This document shows, in pieces, positions 2,690-41,748 of a stretch of 64,000 nt of DNA; the stretch's first letter is position 1, and the number at the start of each line of letters is the position of its first letter. Position numbers and translations under genes: made by a program. The stretch lies in the sequence record PQ303785.1. One strand, 5' to 3'. Source of the DNA: Escherichia phage LYE-01. The notes under the pieces were generated by a model. The model made no database searches, was not told where the DNA came from, and saw only the letters and a program-made list of their open reading frames with translations.

Positions 2690-3386
<697 letters not shown>

Positions 3387-3398
3387 TTTCACAAAGTT

Positions 3399-3428
3399 AT
3401 TTACACGGGGTTTTAGTTGTGATACTAT
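3399..3428 (+). promoter_or_regulatory. T4-type early promoter (TTTACA ... GATACTAT)
   Basis: -35-like TTTACA and -10 TACTAT separated by 17 nt, upstream of ORF at 3465. Confidence 0.55.
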
Positions 3429-3464
3429 TACCCTATCAAAACAAATGAGTGATTGGAGAATAAA

Positions 3465-3737
3465 ATGAAAACATTTAAAGAATTTATCAATGAAGCTACT
3501 TTTAACGAAAAAGTAAAAATTAGCAAAGCTGTCAAGACTTTGATTGCTGACATCAATTACCTATATGATATTGATTTAACTGACTATGTAACAGTTGGTA
3601 ACAAACGTAACTTTTTCGTGTTTGACATCTCTGAACTTGACCAGAATCAAATTAACAACATTGAGCGTTTTGCTAATGATAAGGGTCTTCGTCATGAGTC
3701 AGCGGGTTATAAAAAATACGCAATTTATTTAAAATGA
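3465..3737 (+). CDS. internal protein with capsid-targeting leader (IPI locus)
   Basis: ATG at 3465 preceded by GGAGAATAAA; N-terminus MKTFKEFINEA matches the T4 capsid-targeting sequence; sits next to 57B like T4 ipI. Confidence 0.7.
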   Translation: MKTFKEFINEATFNEKVKISKAVKTLIADINYLYDIDLTDYVTVGNKRNFFVFDISELDQNQINNIERFANDKGLRHESAGYKKYAIYLK

Positions 3738-3767
3738 GTTTACTTTTAAATAGGGTTGTGGTACTAT
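3738..3767 (+). promoter_or_regulatory. T4-type early promoter
   Basis: GTTTAC, 18 nt, TACTAT upstream of ORF 3798. Confidence 0.55.
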
Positions 3768-3797
3768 TATCTCATCAAAATTAATTAGGAAAATAAA

Positions 3798-4106
3798 ATG
3801 AAAACATTTAAAGAATTTATCAATGAAGCGGCTGCACCAAAGACATTCGTTATTAATACTCAAGCGAGTCTTGATGATGAGTACGCGGAGGCAATTCTGA
3901 GGTCACTTGCTAAGAACGGCGTTGAAGTAATCGCCTCGGACTTTAAGAAAGGGGCTTCCGAGATGTTTATTTCTATAACTAAAGGATCTAAAGCTAAAAT
4001 CAAATCATCATTCGGTGTTGCTCGTACCGATCAAATCGACAATCATGACTTTAAACAAACTGGTGTTAAACGGCAGAACACAATTGCATCACGCGGAATA
4101 AAATAG
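3798..4106 (+). CDS. IPII-like internal protein paralog with capsid-targeting leader
   Basis: 102 aa, MKTFKEFINEAAAPK...; clearly alignable along its length with the 100-aa ipII product at 11530..11832. Confidence 0.7.
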   Translation: MKTFKEFINEAAAPKTFVINTQASLDDEYAEAILRSLAKNGVEVIASDFKKGASEMFISITKGSKAKIKSSFGVARTDQIDNHDFKQTGVKRQNTIASRGIK

Positions 4107-4116
4107 TTTATAAACC

Positions 4117-4146
4117 GTTTACTTTTAGATGGGGTAGTGATATTAT
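4117..4146 (+). promoter_or_regulatory. T4-type early promoter
   Basis: GTTTAC, 18 nt, TATTAT upstream of ORF 4175. Confidence 0.5.
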
Positions 4147-4174
4147 TACCCTATCAACTACTGAGGAGAATAAA

Positions 4175-4357
4175 ATGAAACGTTGTGAATTAATTCGAAA
4201 TGTTGCTATTGCAATTTCTGCTTCCGCTTTTAGTTTTTCAATGTTTGTTGGATTTATATGCGGATTATTAACTACAGCAGAAAATGTGTTTTCACTTGTA
4301 GTAGCATTTTTAATTGGTTTAATTGCTATCGTTATGGATAAAATTTCTAAAGGTTAA
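4175..4357 (+). CDS. small membrane protein (two predicted TM helices)
   Basis: 60 aa, hydrophobic; GAGGAGAATAAA SD. Confidence 0.55.
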   Translation: MKRCELIRNVAIAISASAFSFSMFVGFICGLLTTAENVFSLVVAFLIGLIAIVMDKISKG

Positions 4358-35512: not shown

Positions 35513-35686
35513 ATGAACACCCAGACTTCTGAAATAGATTATAATAAAATTCGTTCCTCTAAAGTAGAAATGATGAGACGCTTTAAAGAGTCTCATGATA
35601 AAGCTAAAGCAGAAGGAACTATAACATATAAGCGCATAAAATTTAGAAGCTCTAACGAGCCTTTGTATGGCGTATTATGCGGATAG
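35513..35686 (+). CDS. hypothetical small protein
   Basis: 57-aa ORF ending just before a UUCG hairpin. Confidence 0.35.
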   Translation: MNTQTSEIDYNKIRSSKVEMMRRFKESHDKAKAEGTITYKRIKFRSSNEPLYGVLCG

Positions 35687-35702
35687 GAGCTTCGGCTCCT
35701 AT
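35687..35702 (+). terminator. UUCG-tetraloop hairpin
   Basis: ggagc-TTCG-gctcc upstream of agt. Confidence 0.5.
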
Positions 35703-35752
35703 ATTGCTTTATAAATTTTTGGTAAAATAAACCAAAACAATGAGGATATTAA

Positions 35753-36955
35753 ATGAAAGTATGTATTTTTATGGCTCGAGGTCTTGAAGGTTGCGGTGTA
35801 ACTAAATTTTCTCTTGAGCAGCGTGATTGGTTTATTAAAAATGGTCATGAAGTAACTTTGGTTTATGCTAAAGATAAATCATTTACTCGTAATTGCGCGC
35901 ATGATTATAAATCATTTTCAATTCCGGTTTTATTGGCAAAAGAATACGATAAAACACTTAAGCTGGTAAATGATTGTGATATTCTAATTATCAATTCAGT
36001 TCCTGCTACTTCAGTCGAAGAAGACACGATTAATAACTATAAAAAAATTATTGATAACATTAAACCTTCGGTTCGTGTTGTAGTTTATCAGCATGACCAT
36101 TCTTCTCTTTCTTTGCGTCGAAATTTGGGATTAGAAGAAACTGTTCGTCGAGCTGATGTTATTTTTAGCCATTCTGATAATGGCGATTTTAATAAAGTTT
36201 TAATGAAAGAATGGTATCCAGAAACTGTTTCACTGTTTGATGATATTGAAGAAGCACCGACCGTATATAACTTTCAGCCTCCTATGGATATTGCGAAGGT
36301 TCGATCAACCTACTGGAAAGATGTTTCTGAAATTAACATGAATATCAATCGTTGGATTGGTCGTACTACTACATGGAAAGGCTTTTATCAGATGTTTGAT
36401 TTTCACGAAAAACATCTTAAACCTGCAGGACTAAGTACTATTATGGAAGGCCTGGAACGTTCTCCAGCGTTCATTCCTATTAAAGAAAAAGGAATTCCAT
36501 ACGAGTATTATCGTCTTCATCAAGTAGACCAAATTAAAATTGCTCCTAATTTGCCAACGCAAATTCTCGACCGTTATGTAAATAGCGAAATGCTTGAACG
36601 CATGAGTAAATCCGGATTTGGTTATCAGCTGAGTAAGTTGGACAAAAAATATCTACAGCGTTCTTTAGAATACACTCATCTCGAGCTTGGTGCATGTGGA
36701 ACAATTCCGGTATTTTGGAAATCTACGGGCGAAAATTTAAAATTCCGTGTTGATAATACTCCATTAATTTCTCATGATAGCGGTATCGTTTGGTTTGATG
36801 AAAATGACATGGAATCAACATTTGAACGTATTAAAGAACTGTCATCTGACCGAGCTCTTTATGACCGTGAACGTGAAAAAGCTTATGAATTTTTGTATCA
36901 GCATCAAGATTCAAGCTTCTGCTTTAAAGAACAGTTTGACATTATTACAAAATAA
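35753..36955 (+). CDS. agt: DNA alpha-glucosyltransferase
   Basis: 400 aa (MKVCIFMARGLEGCGVTKFSLEQRDWFIKNGHEV...); matches my recollection of T4 alpha-gt. Confidence 0.9.
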   Translation: MKVCIFMARGLEGCGVTKFSLEQRDWFIKNGHEVTLVYAKDKSFTRNCAHDYKSFSIPVLLAKEYDKTLKLVNDCDILIINSVPATSVEEDTINNYKKIIDNIKPSVRVVVYQHDHSSLSLRRNLGLEETVRRADVIFSHSDNGDFNKVLMKEWYPETVSLFDDIEEAPTVYNFQPPMDIAKVRSTYWKDVSEINMNINRWIGRTTTWKGFYQMFDFHEKHLKPAGLSTIMEGLERSPAFIPIKEKGIPYEYYRLHQVDQIKIAPNLPTQILDRYVNSEMLERMSKSGFGYQLSKLDKKYLQRSLEYTHLELGACGTIPVFWKSTGENLKFRVDNTPLISHDSGIVWFDENDMESTFERIKELSSDRALYDREREKAYEFLYQHQDSSFCFKEQFDIITK

Positions 36956-36972
36956 AGGGCTTCGGCCCTTTA
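36955..36972 (+). terminator. intrinsic terminator (UUCG tetraloop)
   Basis: aagggc-TTCG-gccctt plus T. Confidence 0.6.
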
Positions 36973-36994
36973 GCTTTATACGGAGTTTGATATA

Positions 36995-37135
36995 ATGATA
37001 TTTCTTGGATATGTGATACTTTTTCTGGCGTTTTATTTGTTCACCAGAGCGTGTTGGATTGGGTTCTTTAGTACTCCAGATGGATTTATTTCAATAATTT
37101 TATTTTGCATTTCAATGACGGTTCTTGATATATGA
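36995..37135 (+). CDS. hypothetical small membrane peptide
   Basis: 46-aa hydrophobic ORF, below track cutoff. Confidence 0.3.
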   Translation: MIFLGYVILFLAFYLFTRACWIGFFSTPDGFISIILFCISMTVLDI

Positions 37136-37755
37136 AAAAATATATAACTTATTTAACAATATATAGTGGAGATAAACTTCCTCCTTTTTATATTGGATCT
37201 ACATCTTTAGACAGGCATTTAGCCGGATATCATGGATCAGTTTTATCTAAAAAGTATAAGAAAATTTATAATGAAGAACTTTCAAATAACCCACATTTAT
37301 TTGATTCATGCATTTTAGATGAATTTGATACACGCGAAGAAGCTATTAAATGCGAGCTATATTATCAACGTTTGCATGATGCGGTTAAAAATCCATTATT
37401 CTTTAATATGTCATATGCTGCTCCAAAAGGTTCATTTGGAAGAGATATTAAAGGACAAAATCATCCATTATATGGTTCTCATAATTGTAAAGGAAACATA
37501 CATTCACATGACCCATTAACAGGAAAATCTGCCTTTTTACCGTATATTCCAGAAGGTTATGTAAAAGGAAGGTCAAATAAATTTAAAGCTTCATCACATA
37601 ATAAAGGTAAAAAATGGTATAATAACGGAGTTAAGCAAATGTTATGTCATGAACCTCCTGGTCCTGAATGGACAAAAGGAAAAATTAAAGAACTAGTTTC
37701 AAAAGCAGCTAAATTAGGATGGAAAAGACACCATGAAAATACTAAACTTGGGTGA
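37132..37755 (+). CDS. GIY-YIG homing endonuclease (Seg-like)
   Basis: 207 aa; N-terminal YITYLTIYSGDKLPPFYIGST matches the GIY-x(10)-YIG motif; basic C-terminal half. Confidence 0.75.
   Translation: MKKYITYLTIYSGDKLPPFYIGSTSLDRHLAGYHGSVLSKKYKKIYNEELSNNPHLFDSCILDEFDTREEAIKCELYYQRLHDAVKNPLFFNMSYAAPKGSFGRDIKGQNHPLYGSHNCKGNIHSHDPLTGKSAFLPYIPEGYVKGRSNKFKASSHNKGKKWYNNGVKQMLCHEPPGPEWTKGKIKELVSKAAKLGWKRHHENTKLG
37132..37755 (+). mobile_element. free-standing homing endonuclease gene between agt and 47
   Basis: GIY-YIG ORF lodged between two conserved core genes; its stop overlaps the start of gene 47 by 23 nt. Confidence 0.6.
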
Positions 37756-38752
37756 TTGGCATTTAGGCGTTAAAGCTGATGATGAATGGATTCGCGGTAT
37801 TCAAATTGATGGAATTAAACAAGCGATAGAATATTCTAAGAAAAATGGAATTACTGTATGGATTCAATACGGTGATATTTTTGATGTACGAAAAGCGATC
37901 ACGCATAAAACTATGGAGTTTGCTCGTGAAATAGTTCAAATGCTTGATGACGTTGGAATCACATTACATACTATTGTAGGAAATCACGATCTCCACTATA
38001 AAAATGTAATGCATCCAAATGCTTCTACTGAGCTTTTGGCTAAATATCCTAATGTTAAAGTATATGATAAGCCTACTACAGTAGATTTTGACGGATGCTT
38101 GATTGATTTAATTCCTTGGATGTGTGAAGAAAATACTGGTGAAATTCTTGAACACATCAAAACTTCATCTGCTTCTTTTTGTGTCGGTCACTGGGAGCTG
38201 AATGGATTTTATTTTTATAAAGGAATGAAATCTCACGGTCTTGAACCTGATTTCCTTAAGACTTATAAAGAAGTGTGGTCTGGTCACTTCCATACTATCT
38301 CTGAGGCTGCTAACGTCAGATATATTGGGACACCATGGACACTAACTGCAGGTGACGAGAATGACCCTCGCGGGTTCTGGATGTTTGATACAGAAACAGA
38401 ACGAATGGAATTTATTCCAAACAACACTACCTGGCATCGTCGAATTCAATATCCATTTAAGGGAAAAATTGACTATAAAGATTTTACAAATCTATCAGTA
38501 CGTGTTATAGTAACTGAGGTAGACAAAAATCTGACGAAGTTCGAATCTGAACTAGAAAAAGTTGTGCATTCATTACGAGTTGTGTCAAAGATTGATAACT
38601 CTGTCGAGTCAGATGATAGCGAAGAGGTTGAAGTTCAATCTCTTCAGACGTTGATGGAAGAATACATTAATGCAATTCCAGACATCACTGATTCTGACCG
38701 CGAAGCACTTATTCAATATGCAAATCAGTTATATGTAGAGGCAACACAATGA
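37733..38752 (+). CDS. 47: recombination nuclease subunit gp47 (Mre11-like)
   Basis: 339 aa with phosphoesterase motifs GDWHLG, GDIFD, GNHD. Confidence 0.95.
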   Translation: MKILNLGDWHLGVKADDEWIRGIQIDGIKQAIEYSKKNGITVWIQYGDIFDVRKAITHKTMEFAREIVQMLDDVGITLHTIVGNHDLHYKNVMHPNASTELLAKYPNVKVYDKPTTVDFDGCLIDLIPWMCEENTGEILEHIKTSSASFCVGHWELNGFYFYKGMKSHGLEPDFLKTYKEVWSGHFHTISEAANVRYIGTPWTLTAGDENDPRGFWMFDTETERMEFIPNNTTWHRRIQYPFKGKIDYKDFTNLSVRVIVTEVDKNLTKFESELEKVVHSLRVVSKIDNSVESDDSEEVEVQSLQTLMEEYINAIPDITDSDREALIQYANQLYVEATQ

Positions 38753-39012
38753 CTTTTGATGAATTTAAAAATGTTATGATGAGTCAGCATTTTGAATGCG
38801 AAGTAAAAGATGATATTGGGCATAAAGAAATTATTGAATACTGGTTTGAACCACTAGAGGTTGAAGATAATTGTATTAAAAAGGTTACGGTCTGCACTGA
38901 CTGGGCTGTATCTTTTAACTTCAACATTTTAGATAATGACACACCTAAATCAGTACAAGATATGGCTGTATCTTGTATTAAGGATGCATACTGTGAAGTT
39001 TTCGACATTTGA
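38749..39012 (+). CDS. hypothetical protein
   Basis: 87-aa ORF after gene 47. Confidence 0.5.
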   Translation: MTFDEFKNVMMSQHFECEVKDDIGHKEIIEYWFEPLEVEDNCIKKVTVCTDWAVSFNFNILDNDTPKSVQDMAVSCIKDAYCEVFDI

Positions 39013-39199
39013 CATTAACGATGAATTCATAGCAAATATTGATTACACCGAAGAAGATTCTAGATATGTTGGAATAATTTATATCACATCAAAAGCAGCA
39101 CAAGGTGTTGTTTGCATGGCTGAATTTGATGAATACTTTTTAGATTATGATGATATGATAGAATGGTCTAAAAGATACATTAAAAGGAATCTTTTGTGA
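38984..39199 (+). CDS. hypothetical protein whose 5' end is duplicated at the HNH gene
   Basis: ATG at 38984 or GTG at 38993; N-terminus VKFSTFDINDEF parallels MKNFKLDINDEF of ORF 39196, with about 85 percent identity over roughly 40 nt. Confidence 0.4.
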   Translation: MHTVKFSTFDINDEFIANIDYTEEDSRYVGIIYITSKAAQGVVCMAEFDEYFLDYDDMIEWSKRYIKRNLL

Positions 39200-40050
39200 A
39201 GAATTTTAAACTTGACATTAATGATGAATTTTTAATAAAGGAATTAGTTGAAAAATTAGCGTTGAGTGAAGAAGACGCCAAGTCTTACATTAATTTTATT
39301 TCTATGAATTCAACTGTTAAAACTCCAGGTAAAACGGAAGCACACCACGTGCTTCCTAAATCAATATTTCCTGAATATTTAAAATCTACATGGAATTTAG
39401 TTAATTTAAGTCATTTTAATCATTTTAAAGCACACTTCTTATTAGCAAAAGGTAAAAATGGAAAAATGCTAAATGCTTTAAATAGAATGATGTCAGGAAA
39501 AACATATAAAAATTTATCTTTAGCCGAAGTTGATTTAATAGCTGCTGAATATAGTTTTATAAAACAAGATGTAAGTGACACAATATCAAAAAGGCTTCAA
39601 CAGTATTATTCAAATCCGCAAAATAGAAATGCTGCTAGAGAAAGGGCATTAAAATATTTTTCAGTAGCAAAAAATAGGAAAGATAACAAAGAAAGATTAA
39701 ATAATTTTAAAACAAAACAAAAAATTTCAATGGCTTCAAGGGAATGGTTTAATAACGAAGAAAATAAAATTAAACACCAAAAGGCTGTTCGTGCTGCTTT
39801 ATCAAAACCTGAATATAAAATAGCTATATCAAATTCAGTAGCTGCTAGTTGGAAAAATCCGGAGATTAGAAAAGCTCATATAGCATCTAGACGAAAAGGC
39901 TATCATTGGGATAATAAAGATAAATTGTATGAATTGTGGATATCATATAATCGTCCTAAACATGTGATGTTTAGGAAAATGTTAGTTAAGAATGGATATC
40001 CAATAGAGGCTTCATTACAGGCTTTAGTTAAAGAATTTTCTTCATTGTGA
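39196..40050 (+). CDS. HNH homing endonuclease-like protein (Mob-like)
   Basis: 284 aa; HNH core EAHHVLPKSIFPEYLKSTWNLVNLSHFNHFKAH; GTG start. Confidence 0.65.
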   Translation: MKNFKLDINDEFLIKELVEKLALSEEDAKSYINFISMNSTVKTPGKTEAHHVLPKSIFPEYLKSTWNLVNLSHFNHFKAHFLLAKGKNGKMLNALNRMMSGKTYKNLSLAEVDLIAAEYSFIKQDVSDTISKRLQQYYSNPQNRNAARERALKYFSVAKNRKDNKERLNNFKTKQKISMASREWFNNEENKIKHQKAVRAALSKPEYKIAISNSVAASWKNPEIRKAHIASRRKGYHWDNKDKLYELWISYNRPKHVMFRKMLVKNGYPIEASLQALVKEFSSL

Positions 40051-40065
40051 ACAATTGGATACAAA

Positions 40066-41748
40066 ATGAAATCATTTAAACTTAATAGAGTAAAATATAA
40101 AAATATAATGTCAGTTGGTCAAAATGGAGTTGACATTCAATTAGATAAGGTTCAAAAAACTCTTATTACTGGACGAAATGGCGGTGGTAAGTCTACTATG
40201 TTAGAAGCCATCACATTTGGGCTTTTTGGCAAGCCATTTCGTGATGTAAAGAAAGGTCAATTAATAAACAGCACAAATAAGAAAGAACTTTTAGTTGAAC
40301 TGTGGATGGAATATGATGAGAAAAAGTACTATATCAAAAGAGGACAAAAACCAAACGTTTTCGAAATCACCGTTAACGGTACACGTCTTAATGAATCTGC
40401 CAGCAGTAAAGATTTCCAAGCAGAATTTGAACAGCTTATCGGAATGTCATATGCCAGTTTCAAGCAGATTGTTGTCCTTGGTACAGCAGGGTATACCCCT
40501 TTCATGGGTTTGTCGACCCCTGCGCGAAGAAAGCTTGTGGAAGACCTGCTTGAGGTAGGAACATTAGCTGAAATGGATAAGCTTAATAAAGCACTAATAC
40601 GTGAATTAAATTCACAAAACCAAGTGCTTGATGTTAAAAAAGATAGTATTATCCAGCAAATTAAAATATATAATGATAACGTTGAACGTCAGAAAAAATT
40701 AACTGGTGATAACCTTACTCGTCTGCAGAATATGTATGATGATTTGGCGAAAGAAGCTAGAACGTTAAAATCGGAAATAGAAGAAGCTAATGAAAGATTA
40801 GTTAATATTGTTTTGGATGAAGACCCGACTGATGCATTTAATAAAATCGGTCAAGAAGCATTTTTAATTAAATCAAAAATTGACTCGTATAATAAAGTCA
40901 TTAATATGTATCACGAAGGTGGATTATGTCCAACCTGTTTGTCACAATTAAGTTCCGGTGATAAAGTTGTTTCTAAAATTAAAGATAAAGTTTCTGAATG
41001 CACGCATTCGTTTGAACAGCTTTCAACACATCGTGATAATTTAAAAGTTCTCGTTGATGAATACCGAGATAATATTAAAACCCAGCAGACGTTGGCGAAT
41101 GATATTCGCAATAAAAAGCAATCCTTAATCACGACGATAGATAAAGCTAAAAAGGTTAAAGCGGCTATAGAAAAAGCATCATCCGAGTTTATTGACCATG
41201 CTGATGAAATAGCACTGCTTCAAGAAGAACTTGATAAAATTGTTAAGACAAAAACTAATTTAGTAATGGAAAAATACCACAGAGGAATTTTGACTGACAT
41301 GCTCAAAGATTCTGGTATTAAAGGTGCTATTATTAAAAAGTACATTCCATTATTTAATAAGCAGATTAACCATTATCTTAAAATAATGGAAGCGGATTAT
41401 GTGTTTACATTAGATGAAGAATTTAATGAGACAATTAAATCCCGTGGTCGCGAAGATTTTAGTTATGCTTCATTCAGTGAAGGTGAAAAAGCACGAATTG
41501 ATATTGCTCTTTTATTTACTTGGCGTGATATTGCTTCTATCGTATCTGGTGTTAGTATTAGTACATTAATTCTTGATGAAGTGTTTGATGGGTCATTTGA
41601 TGCCGAAGGTATTAAAGGTGTAGCGAATATTATAAATTCAATGAAAAATACTAATGTTTTTATAATTTCGCATAAAGACCACGACCCGCAAGAATATGGT
41701 CAGCATCTTCAAATGAAGAAAGTTGGTCGGTTTACTGTAATGGTTTAA
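40066..41748 (+). CDS. 46: recombination ATPase subunit gp46 (Rad50-like)
   Basis: 560 aa; Walker A GRNGGGKST, long coiled coil with CPTC zinc hook, C-terminal signature and D-loop. Confidence 0.95.
   Translation: MKSFKLNRVKYKNIMSVGQNGVDIQLDKVQKTLITGRNGGGKSTMLEAITFGLFGKPFRDVKKGQLINSTNKKELLVELWMEYDEKKYYIKRGQKPNVFEITVNGTRLNESASSKDFQAEFEQLIGMSYASFKQIVVLGTAGYTPFMGLSTPARRKLVEDLLEVGTLAEMDKLNKALIRELNSQNQVLDVKKDSIIQQIKIYNDNVERQKKLTGDNLTRLQNMYDDLAKEARTLKSEIEEANERLVNIVLDEDPTDAFNKIGQEAFLIKSKIDSYNKVINMYHEGGLCPTCLSQLSSGDKVVSKIKDKVSECTHSFEQLSTHRDNLKVLVDEYRDNIKTQQTLANDIRNKKQSLITTIDKAKKVKAAIEKASSEFIDHADEIALLQEELDKIVKTKTNLVMEKYHRGILTDMLKDSGIKGAIIKKYIPLFNKQINHYLKIMEADYVFTLDEEFNETIKSRGREDFSYASFSEGEKARIDIALLFTWRDIASIVSGVSISTLILDEVFDGSFDAEGIKGVANIINSMKNTNVFIISHKDHDPQEYGQHLQMKKVGRFTVMV

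Follow-up and report, generated by a model that had tools for sequence, protein, structure and literature searches.

The stretch of Escherichia phage LYE-01 examined here (sequence record PQ303785.1) is 64,000 nt long and is called the window below; all coordinates are positions in it, on the + strand. It carries two genes for putative free-standing homing endonucleases among its recombination nuclease genes: a GIY-YIG gene at 37132–37755 (207 aa) and an HNH, Mob-like gene at 39196–40050 (284 aa, GTG start). The order is a-gt (35753–36955), 47.1 (36995–37135; 46 aa; PHROG 6693, E 1.5e-31), the GIY-YIG open reading frame (ORF), 47 (37733–38752), 46.2 (38749–39012; Pfam T4_Y03C, E 1.7e-43), 46.1 (38993–39199; 68 aa, GTG start; Pfam DUF5487, E 2e-48), the HNH ORF, and 46 (40066–41748). 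The ORFs of genes 47 and 46 are both intact from end to end: by the annotation of relatives, 47 encodes the Mre11/SbcD-like nuclease subunit (Pfam Metallophos, E 2.7e-8) and 46, placed from the ORF list, the Rad50/SbcC-like subunit. Alignment with T4 shows that each endonuclease gene, as part of an inserted cassette, has taken over the translation start of the gene it displaced and that the cassette gives that gene a new one. An earlier note on this DNA had described the GIY-YIG ORF and its 23-nt overlap with the start of 47, in agreement with the ORF list, and had put both elements inside the recombination nuclease operon; both do lie within the 47.1-47-46.2-46.1-46 transcription unit. The same note's coordinates for the HNH ORF hold, but its position “between 47 and 46” is more exactly between 46.1 and 46, with 46.2 and 46.1 separating it from 47.

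Some 3.4 kb around the locus has matches in 621 phage records, chiefly Escherichia and Shigella Tequatroviruses, with PhiZZ23 and Lutter closest at 97.7–97.9%; by these matches the window is a T-even (Tequatrovirus) segment. A search for introns and structured RNAs gave no Rfam family match in 36500–40500 at E values up to 1, and neither endonuclease gene is therefore considered intron-borne.

At the first site, the insertion relative to T4 and T2 spans 37139–37739 (601 nt; its limits can shift within an ATGAAAA repeat), and the anchors on either side are 621 nt apart, versus 20 nt in T4, T2, and those IMG/VR loci with both anchors. The left copy of the 7 nt repeat (37132–37138) corresponds to the native gene 47 start and now forms codons 1–2 of the GIY-YIG ORF (MK + KYITY); the T4 sequence opposite it at the 47.1/47 junction is GATATATGAAAATTTTAAAT. 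The ATG of the ORF overlaps the TGA stop of 47.1 (ATATGA), while in T4 the 47.1 stop overlaps the start of gene 47 (ATATGAAAATTTTAAAT), with no insert at GATATATGAAAATTTTAAAT. The resulting N-terminus, MKKYITY, is one Lys longer than the MKYITY or MKYATY of orthologs in other genera. Gene 47 has a rebuilt start at 37733–37755, inside the 3′ end of the GIY-YIG gene in the 23-nt overlap; this sequence (ATGAAAATACTAAACTTGGGT) differs from that of T4 (ATGAAAATTTTAAATTTAGGT) by four synonymous changes in codons 3–6.

At the second site, 870 nt (39214–40083) are inserted relative to T4 after codon 6 of gene 46, with 912 nt between anchors, versus 42 nt in T4, where the 46.1 stop overlaps the gene 46 start directly (CTTTTGTGAAGAATTTTAAACTTAATAGAG). 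HNH codons 1–6 (GTGAAGAATTTTAAACTT, 39196–39213) correspond to the native gene 46 start, matching T4 at 18/18 positions; the left flank is collinear with T4, and the T4 46.1/46 junction has the very same AAGGA Shine-Dalgarno sequence and GTGA stop/start overlap. The first bases of the insert are HNH codons 7–12 (GACATTAATGATGAATTT, 39214–39231), which encode DINDEF and copy codons 7–12 of 46.1. Its last bases, after a 15-nt spacer, are rebuilt gene 46 codons 1–6 (ATGAAATCATTTAAACTT, 40066–40083; MKSFKL, against MKNFKL in T4), an imperfect 18-nt repeat of the native codons (14/18, including a perfect 9 nt, TTTAAACTT) with ATG in place of the native GTG. A full-length gene 46 is restored; because its first six codons are duplicated, full-length gp46 should still be made.

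In these alignments, then, each endonuclease ORF has as its first codon the one from which T4 translates the displaced gene, and the 3′ end of each cassette supplies a replacement start and recoded N-terminal codons. The endonucleases are therefore N-terminal fusions, of the MK of gp47 to KYITY… in one case and of the MKNFKL of gp46 to the rest of the protein in the other. The earlier note, which proposed that a homing insertion had copied or captured the start of a resident gene, was right that the HNH gene captured one, but the start is that of gene 46 (18/18 to T4) rather than that of 46.1 (12/18). Neither the rebuilt gene 46 start ATGAAATCATTTAAACTT nor the use of the native gene 47 start by the GIY-YIG gene was remarked upon there.

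Endonuclease genes whose start overlaps the stop of the gene before them, T4 mobE among them, are already known, and the overlap is taken as a sign of translational coupling (PMC2988022). T4 mobE is at nrdA/nrdB, where its start overlaps the upstream stop (UAAUGA) in an arrangement read as limiting endonuclease expression (PMC2988022), and like the genes in the window it lies among essential genes of one operon. The window ORFs differ in taking the downstream essential gene's own start codon, as used in T4, with the cassette providing a new one, and the HNH ORF also takes six gene 46 codons and the Shine-Dalgarno sequence. What sets the window apart from the known stop/start overlaps is the source of the captured signal: the essential gene that was displaced. 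Endonuclease insertions within coding sequence are reportedly represented by MobA with genes 39/60 and by Aeh1 mobE inside nrdA. In such insertions, the essential gene still works through newly made translation signals. The HNH gene of the window is likewise inserted within the coding region of an essential gene, but gene 46 is not split: the insertion is at six codons, and those are duplicated.

Masking of the starts by RNA structure and cassette-specific promoters were both considered and rejected. When the four initiation regions were folded, their stability did not exceed that of shuffled sequences (z −0.19 to +0.49). As for promoters, the late-promoter motif TATAAATA does not occur in 36900–40200, and sigma-70-like matches are at the level of shuffles (31 vs. 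31.6).

Junction-specific searches of the phage collection (counts are of records, and include duplicates of some phages) showed both sites to be mostly empty. The 46.1/46 site was found in 517 records, 70–71 with the HNH cassette and 446 without; the 47.1/47 site was found in 503, of which 68 have the GIY-YIG cassette and 435 do not. T4 has neither gene. T2 has no GIY-YIG gene, and a 2-nt deletion has broken its HNH gene into two ORFs; in T6 the HNH gene is intact and the GIY-YIG gene missing; and in RB51 the HNH stretch is unannotated, the protein aligning in two pieces only. The comparison with T4, T2, and T6 suggested in the earlier note has thus yielded empty-site alleles, in T4 for both sites and in T2 and T6 for the GIY-YIG site. 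For both cassettes the junctions are identical among all carriers, and across the approximately 70 HNH carriers both the left and the right junction agree at no less than 99% identity. Eight records, from five phages, have both cassettes, versus about 9.5 expected under independence; linkage of the two was accordingly rejected, and they assort independently. Empty alleles left by loss of a cassette, which would have a recoded 47 start joined to 47.1 or a 46 start with the GGAGTT variant linked to the cassette, were not found in IMG/VR, at 7 relevant loci. A candidate immunity patch in 47.1 (six or seven synonymous changes, 60–120 nt upstream of the GIY-YIG gene) was also set aside: 47.1 is polymorphic generally, and HY01, which is cassette-free, is 99.3% identical to the window in this gene.

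The 207-aa protein is, by alignment and structure prediction, a GIY-YIG enzyme, and a divergent member of its Pfam family. In a 40-sequence alignment E75 and N92 never vary, and conservation reaches at least 90% at Y11, within a T-I-Y motif, and at Y20-I21-G22; in the window protein an Arg-His pair follows the YIG motif at residues 28–29. The AlphaFold model has a mean predicted local distance difference test score (pLDDT) of 81, and 89–98 over residues 1–90. Its top three PDB matches are all the I-TevI catalytic domain (probability 0.95–1.0; 0.99–1.0 for 1LN0/1MK0), on which the predicted N-terminal domain superposes with a template modeling (TM) score of 0.60 on the target, and all other matches have E > 3. 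The likeness to I-TevI extends to the conserved Tyr, Tyr-Ile-Gly, Glu75, and Asn92, and to the NUMOD3 domain (PF07460) carried by many homologs of the window protein, which itself has no Pfam match in that region; small beta-hairpins are predicted at 123–136 and 161–172. Unlike I-TevI, the window gene lies outside any intron, identity is merely 17–18%, and the Pfam score is below threshold, while one homolog (P0065) has a precomputed match to PF01541. The label “HNH endonuclease” given to this protein by RefSeq and PHROG 10820 is a misnomer.

The “Seg-like” description in the earlier note fits the architecture only. Like segF (beside gene 56) and segG (beside gene 32), the window gene is a free-standing GIY-YIG gene next to a conserved gene, present in some T-even phages and absent from others. 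Sequence kinship of its product with SegA, SegF, or I-TevII of T4 was rejected for want of a significant BLAST match (best E 0.03, elsewhere).

For the 284-aa protein, sequence homology and the predicted fold together point to a Mob-type HNH enzyme, as had been proposed. It matches T4 mobD by tblastn (30% identity over 83% of the query, residues 47–281; E 2e-11) and T4 MobB by BLASTP (32%, E 1e-8) over the motif HH…NLV.L…H..AH, with which TEAHHVLPKS…WNLVNLSHFNHFKAH is aligned. Further matches are to RB43 mobE (E 2e-6) and a mobC region (E 1e-5), and to PHROGs 655 (E 7.8e-45) and 12434. H50, H51, N67, H76, and H80 are invariant in an alignment of its homologs and align with the T4 MobB motif; the model places strands at 47–51 and 68–72 and a helix at 73–84 (pLDDT ~85–90), the arrangement expected for an HNH fold. 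T4 MobB and MobD are also encoded by free-standing genes between conserved phage genes, but at other loci (mobB in T4 lies between a-gt and a-gt.2), and they differ from the window protein in its N-terminal 12 residues, which come from neighboring genes, and in its C-terminal module. The mobB site between a-gt.2 and a-gt (35686–35753) is empty here, with only 66 nt and a hairpin. The motifs, the class matches, the empty sites, and the lack of an intron all favor the earlier assignment of both ORFs to free-standing homing endonucleases.

The HNH start carries a second layer of history. The strongest direct-repeat family in the region pairs 38992–39036 with 39195–39239, 45 nt at 76% identity and 203 nt apart. 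A repeat of about 40 nt at the HNH start had been reported in the earlier note at roughly 85% identity; the repeat is real and was recovered on re-alignment as the top family, but over the 36 nt quoted there the identity is 81% (29/36). The small ORF with VKFSTFDINDEF, placed there at 38984, starts instead with the GTG at 38993 and is gene 46.1. Identity is uneven along the repeat: 7/7, then 6/12, then 16/18. The last part is the 18-mer GACATTAATGATGAATTT (39214–39231), whose sole other match in the window is its 46.1 source copy at 39011–39028, with two mismatches. The two are in register, as codons 7–12 of both ORFs, and agree at 16/18 positions; the 46.1 copy of T4 agrees with the HNH codons at 17/18. 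Many short two-copy repeats occur within the same 3.4 kb, as might be expected if this one were a chance match in AT-rich DNA. That idea can be given practically no credence: 18-mer matches with up to two mismatches are expected 0.04 times on both strands of the 64-kb window, none of 100 shuffles gave two, and the real match is in register and nearly perfect to T4.

At first glance, the whole 36–45 nt at the HNH start could be one duplicate of the 46.1 start, created or picked up on insertion, as the earlier note had it. The repeat family is continuous over 45 nt at 76% identity, MKNFKLDINDEF parallels VKFSTFDINDEF, and RB69-like 46.1 alleles start MKTFEFNLDDEF, nearer to MKNFKL. The first 18 nt of the HNH gene and all of its left flank are, however, exactly what T4 has at its 46.1/46 junction, the 18 nt there opening gene 46; they match the 46.1 start at only 12/18 positions, and the profile of 7/7, 6/12, and 16/18 indicates two pieces of different origin. 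A single duplication would regain credit with a T-even 46.1 allele starting GTGAAGAATTTTAAACTTGACATT; an MKNFKL start was found in none of the 14 46.1 homolog sequences read back (of 35 found). This account is largely refuted and is very improbable, and the HNH N-terminus does not parallel 46.1 as a whole: DINDEF alone (codons 7–12) derives from it. The TGTGAAG at the head of the repeat and the scattered matches after it also occur between the 46.1 and 46 start regions of T4, which has no endonuclease gene there, and this layer is an older resemblance between the two start regions.

The resemblance is stronger in an RB69-like contig (L015:2501–2730), where the 46.1 start ATGAAGACTTTTGAATTTAAT (MKTFEF) and the 46 start GTGAAGACTTTTAAGCTTAAG (VKTFKL) are identical at 16 of 21 positions. 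This likeness suggests a past capture by 46.1 itself of sequence from around the gene 46 start, or an exchange between the two.

How DINDEF came to follow six codons of gene 46 is suggested by relatives. HNH orthologs at the same locus in phage F2 and in Gelderlandvirus SEA1 are 41–44% identical to the window protein, with unrelated N-termini; orthologous proteins diverge before residue ~13–24, and in the model of the window protein residues 1–10 have a mean pLDDT of 58 (below 50 for 1–4), against 92 for residues 11–30. The first 12 residues are therefore best seen as local baggage and not part of the enzyme. F2 has no 46.1; its HNH ORF, whose product is the one 41% identical to that of the window, directly follows 46.2 and starts ATGACGAAGACTGATTATGAAA. 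A native 46.1 homolog (P0161) on an F2-like Logan contig (ERR10686928_1885) has the same first 22 nt as this F2 ORF (MTKTDYE), which indicates that in the F2 lineage the HNH gene took over the 46.1 start, embedded in the 3′ end of 46.2. By analogy, the HNH ORF of the T-even phages would once have followed 46.2 immediately and been translated from the 46.1 start, opening with 46.1 codons 1–12 (intermediate junction GTGAAGTTTTCGACATTTGACATTAATGATGAATTTTTAATAAAGG); an illegitimate join of the similar start regions (…ACATTT|GACATT and …AAACTT|AATAGA) would then have moved it to 46.1/46. That HNH codons 7–12 are a relic of such an earlier arrangement on the 46.1 start has, in our judgment, about even chances.

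The main rival is that DINDEF was written in place, by ectopic gene conversion over a short tract, with the 46.1 start region as donor, once the cassette was in place, and is no relic at all. The donor region lies just 203 nt upstream and has TGTGAAG in common with the recipient, the two start regions show shared sequence in all T-evens, the 16/21 identity of the RB69-like starts suggests repeated exchange, and the relic account still wants its intermediate (below). A conversion seeded at TGTGAAG, however, should have converted the intervening 12 nt, and these remain of gene 46 type; the copied 18-mer opens precisely where the insert does, and its source in 46.1 opens at the 46.2 stop codon (39010–39012), as expected of a junction; and F2 shows that HNH genes of this slot can use the 46.1 start. 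Conversion in place is thus rather unlikely. If DINDEF is a relic, the HNH cassette might further record a rare ectopic hop from the slot after 46.2 to the next one downstream, with the similar start regions serving as landing pads that keep genes expressed; this we put forward only tentatively.

The clearest sign of lateral movement comes from the same F2-like Logan contig (L022). On both sides of positions ~3141–4180 it is 97–100% identical to F2. Within that tract it is 97.5–100% identical to the window, and outside it the identity to the window is roughly 60–85% in 40-nt windows. The tract comprises 96 nt of the 3′ end of 46.1, the whole HNH cassette, and about 75 nt of gene 46. This looks like a natural footprint of homing with co-conversion, the pattern expected of double-strand-break repair into a diverged genome, and the HNH cut site likely lies within ~100 nt of the 46.1/46 junction. 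Lateral copying with short flanking tracts is in this way seen for the HNH cassette; for the GIY-YIG cassette, mobility is supported only by the pattern of presence and absence. From the behavior of the two families, the enzymes would be expected to cut a cassette-free allele near the start of 47 or 46 in a mixed infection, and recombinational repair of the cut genome would then bring in the cassette together with short flanks. Intronless homing by SegF and SegG in T4 × T2 crosses offers a parallel, in that co-conversion of flanking sequence is expected, and the contig displays such a tract for the HNH cassette.

A GIY-YIG gene is also found directly upstream of 47 in SEA1, Klebsiella phage SmallBear, QL01 (Dhakavirus), and Aeromonas phage L9-6 (Biquartavirus), at L006:872–1492, L019:1498–2106, L020:1498–2115, and L021:1504–2253 in these four other genera. 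It overlaps gene 47 by 14–23 nt in these and in the window. Its product and gp47 are, respectively, 80 and 73% identical to those of the window in SEA1, 70 and 70% in SmallBear, 60 and 72% in QL01, and 51 and 52% in L9-6. Since the divergence of the GIY-YIG protein roughly tracks that of gp47 across genera, its association with the gene 47 site is old.

This raises the possibility that both ORFs are no longer mobile: they could be resident, vertically inherited, or domesticated, possibly inactive nucleases or regulators of 47 and 46, whose patchiness reflects loss. The parallel divergence and constant position of the GIY-YIG gene in the four other genera would fit, as would the HNH copies of T2, RB51, Ac3, and G2133, which align in two pieces (that of T2 with its 2-nt deletion). 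We consider this improbable nonetheless. A T-even HNH cassette stands in an F2-like genome with 96 and 75 nt of flank; HNH and GIY-YIG cassettes are each 95–100% identical among carrier records, independent of each other; the catalytic motifs are intact in both proteins; and decay of some copies is expected in the life cycle of a homing endonuclease gene.

Taken together, a reading in which these are two independent cassettes for free-standing homing endonucleases (601 nt with a GIY-YIG gene at 47.1/47; 870 nt with an HNH gene six codons into 46), with captured starts, seems to us quite probable. Several results weigh against it. The Pfam GIY-YIG model (PF01541) scores 19.9 bits on the shorter protein (E 9e-4), under its gathering score of 22.6; Pfam does not recognize the HNH domain of the longer one, and fold searches with its model against solved structures were uninformative. 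The divergence of the GIY-YIG protein, in roughly tracking that of gp47, fits long vertical residence as well as homing. No paper characterizing cleavage or transmission by either protein was found in the literature. For the relic, an intermediate of the form 46.2 → 46.1(1–12)::HNH → 46 was not found in IMG/VR or the metagenome collection by exact matches to 46.1 codons 4–12 fused to HNH codon 13 onward; every HNH-bearing record of the phage collection (“phages”) has the present junction; and the start shared with F2 has merely 8 of its 22 nt beyond the 46.2 stop, making the analogy suggestive and not strong.

Free-standing homing endonucleases help to shape which parts of T-even genomes are exchangeable, and the Mre11/Rad50-like gp47 and gp46 have a suggested role in the repair on which homing depends. 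With the cassettes in place, the native translation signals of the essential genes 47 and 46 are replaced, and the dosage of gp47 and gp46 could change. Both endonuclease genes are uncharacterized members of well-known T-even classes. One “other HNH” gene each was listed, without coordinates, for T2, T6, and RB51 (Petrov et al., 2010; PMC2993671, Table 5), and this is probably the HNH gene of the window. The kind of element is therefore ordinary and already cataloged; what is unusual is how clearly the insertion scars can be read. The captured start, rebuilt start, and chimeric N-terminus show base by base how a gene can enter coding sequence without inactivating it, and probably also how it can move between adjacent slots; with the Logan contig footprint, they are useful, testable details rather than a new kind of system. 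T6 with an intact HNH gene, T2 with a frameshifted one, and T4 with an empty site are ready material for crosses.

Directly 3′ of the HNH insertion point is a sharply bounded polymorphic patch, in gene 46 codons 6–22 (40083–40131). A variant form (CTAAACCGAGTTAGGTATCAA…GGTGGAAATCCT), with 13 substitutions in 66 nt, is found in 371 of the 517 records, all of them cassette-free, wV7 and Ozark being examples; the T4-type form is found in about 74 cassette-free records and in every cassette-bearing one (~70). Sequence on either side is nearly identical between the two haplotypes. The patch may mark determinants of recognition by the HNH endonuclease (its target) or of immunity to it; alternatively, the association could be simple linkage. 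SEA1 likewise carries an HNH gene upstream of 46; its gene 46 start (L006:3318–3350) is 30/33 identical to the rebuilt start of the window, while its gp46 overall is only 76% identical. Patches of substitutions also occur in gene 47 of some cassette-free relatives (L010, L012, L013), at 37790–37820 (9 changes in 30 nt, codons 20–30) and ~37970–38030 (14 in 60 nt, near codon 85). Patchy mosaicism of this sort is thus widespread across the operon and not peculiar to the endonuclease sites.

The HNH protein ends in a module of about 50–60 aa (residues 225–284, 39868–40047), with the pattern W..LYELWI..KP…F……GYP and no Pfam match. It matches the gene 47-linked GIY-YIG protein of Aeromonas phage L9-6 (BLASTP E 8e-9) and weakly resembles the C-terminus of T4 SegA. 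It is found in 29 representative proteins, often in two or three tandem copies, with N-terminal partners that include canonical HNH domains, one GIY-YIG + NUMOD3 protein, and other domains. Common to gene 46- and gene 47-linked endonucleases of both the HNH and the GIY-YIG type, it could conceivably be a portable DNA-binding unit that steers different nuclease domains to this operon. Elsewhere in the HNH gene, a perfect 8-bp inverted repeat (GGAAGCAC … GTGCTTCC) at 39336–39356 lies exactly over the codons for the catalytic TEAHHVLP; a scan scored it as terminator-like on the minus strand only.

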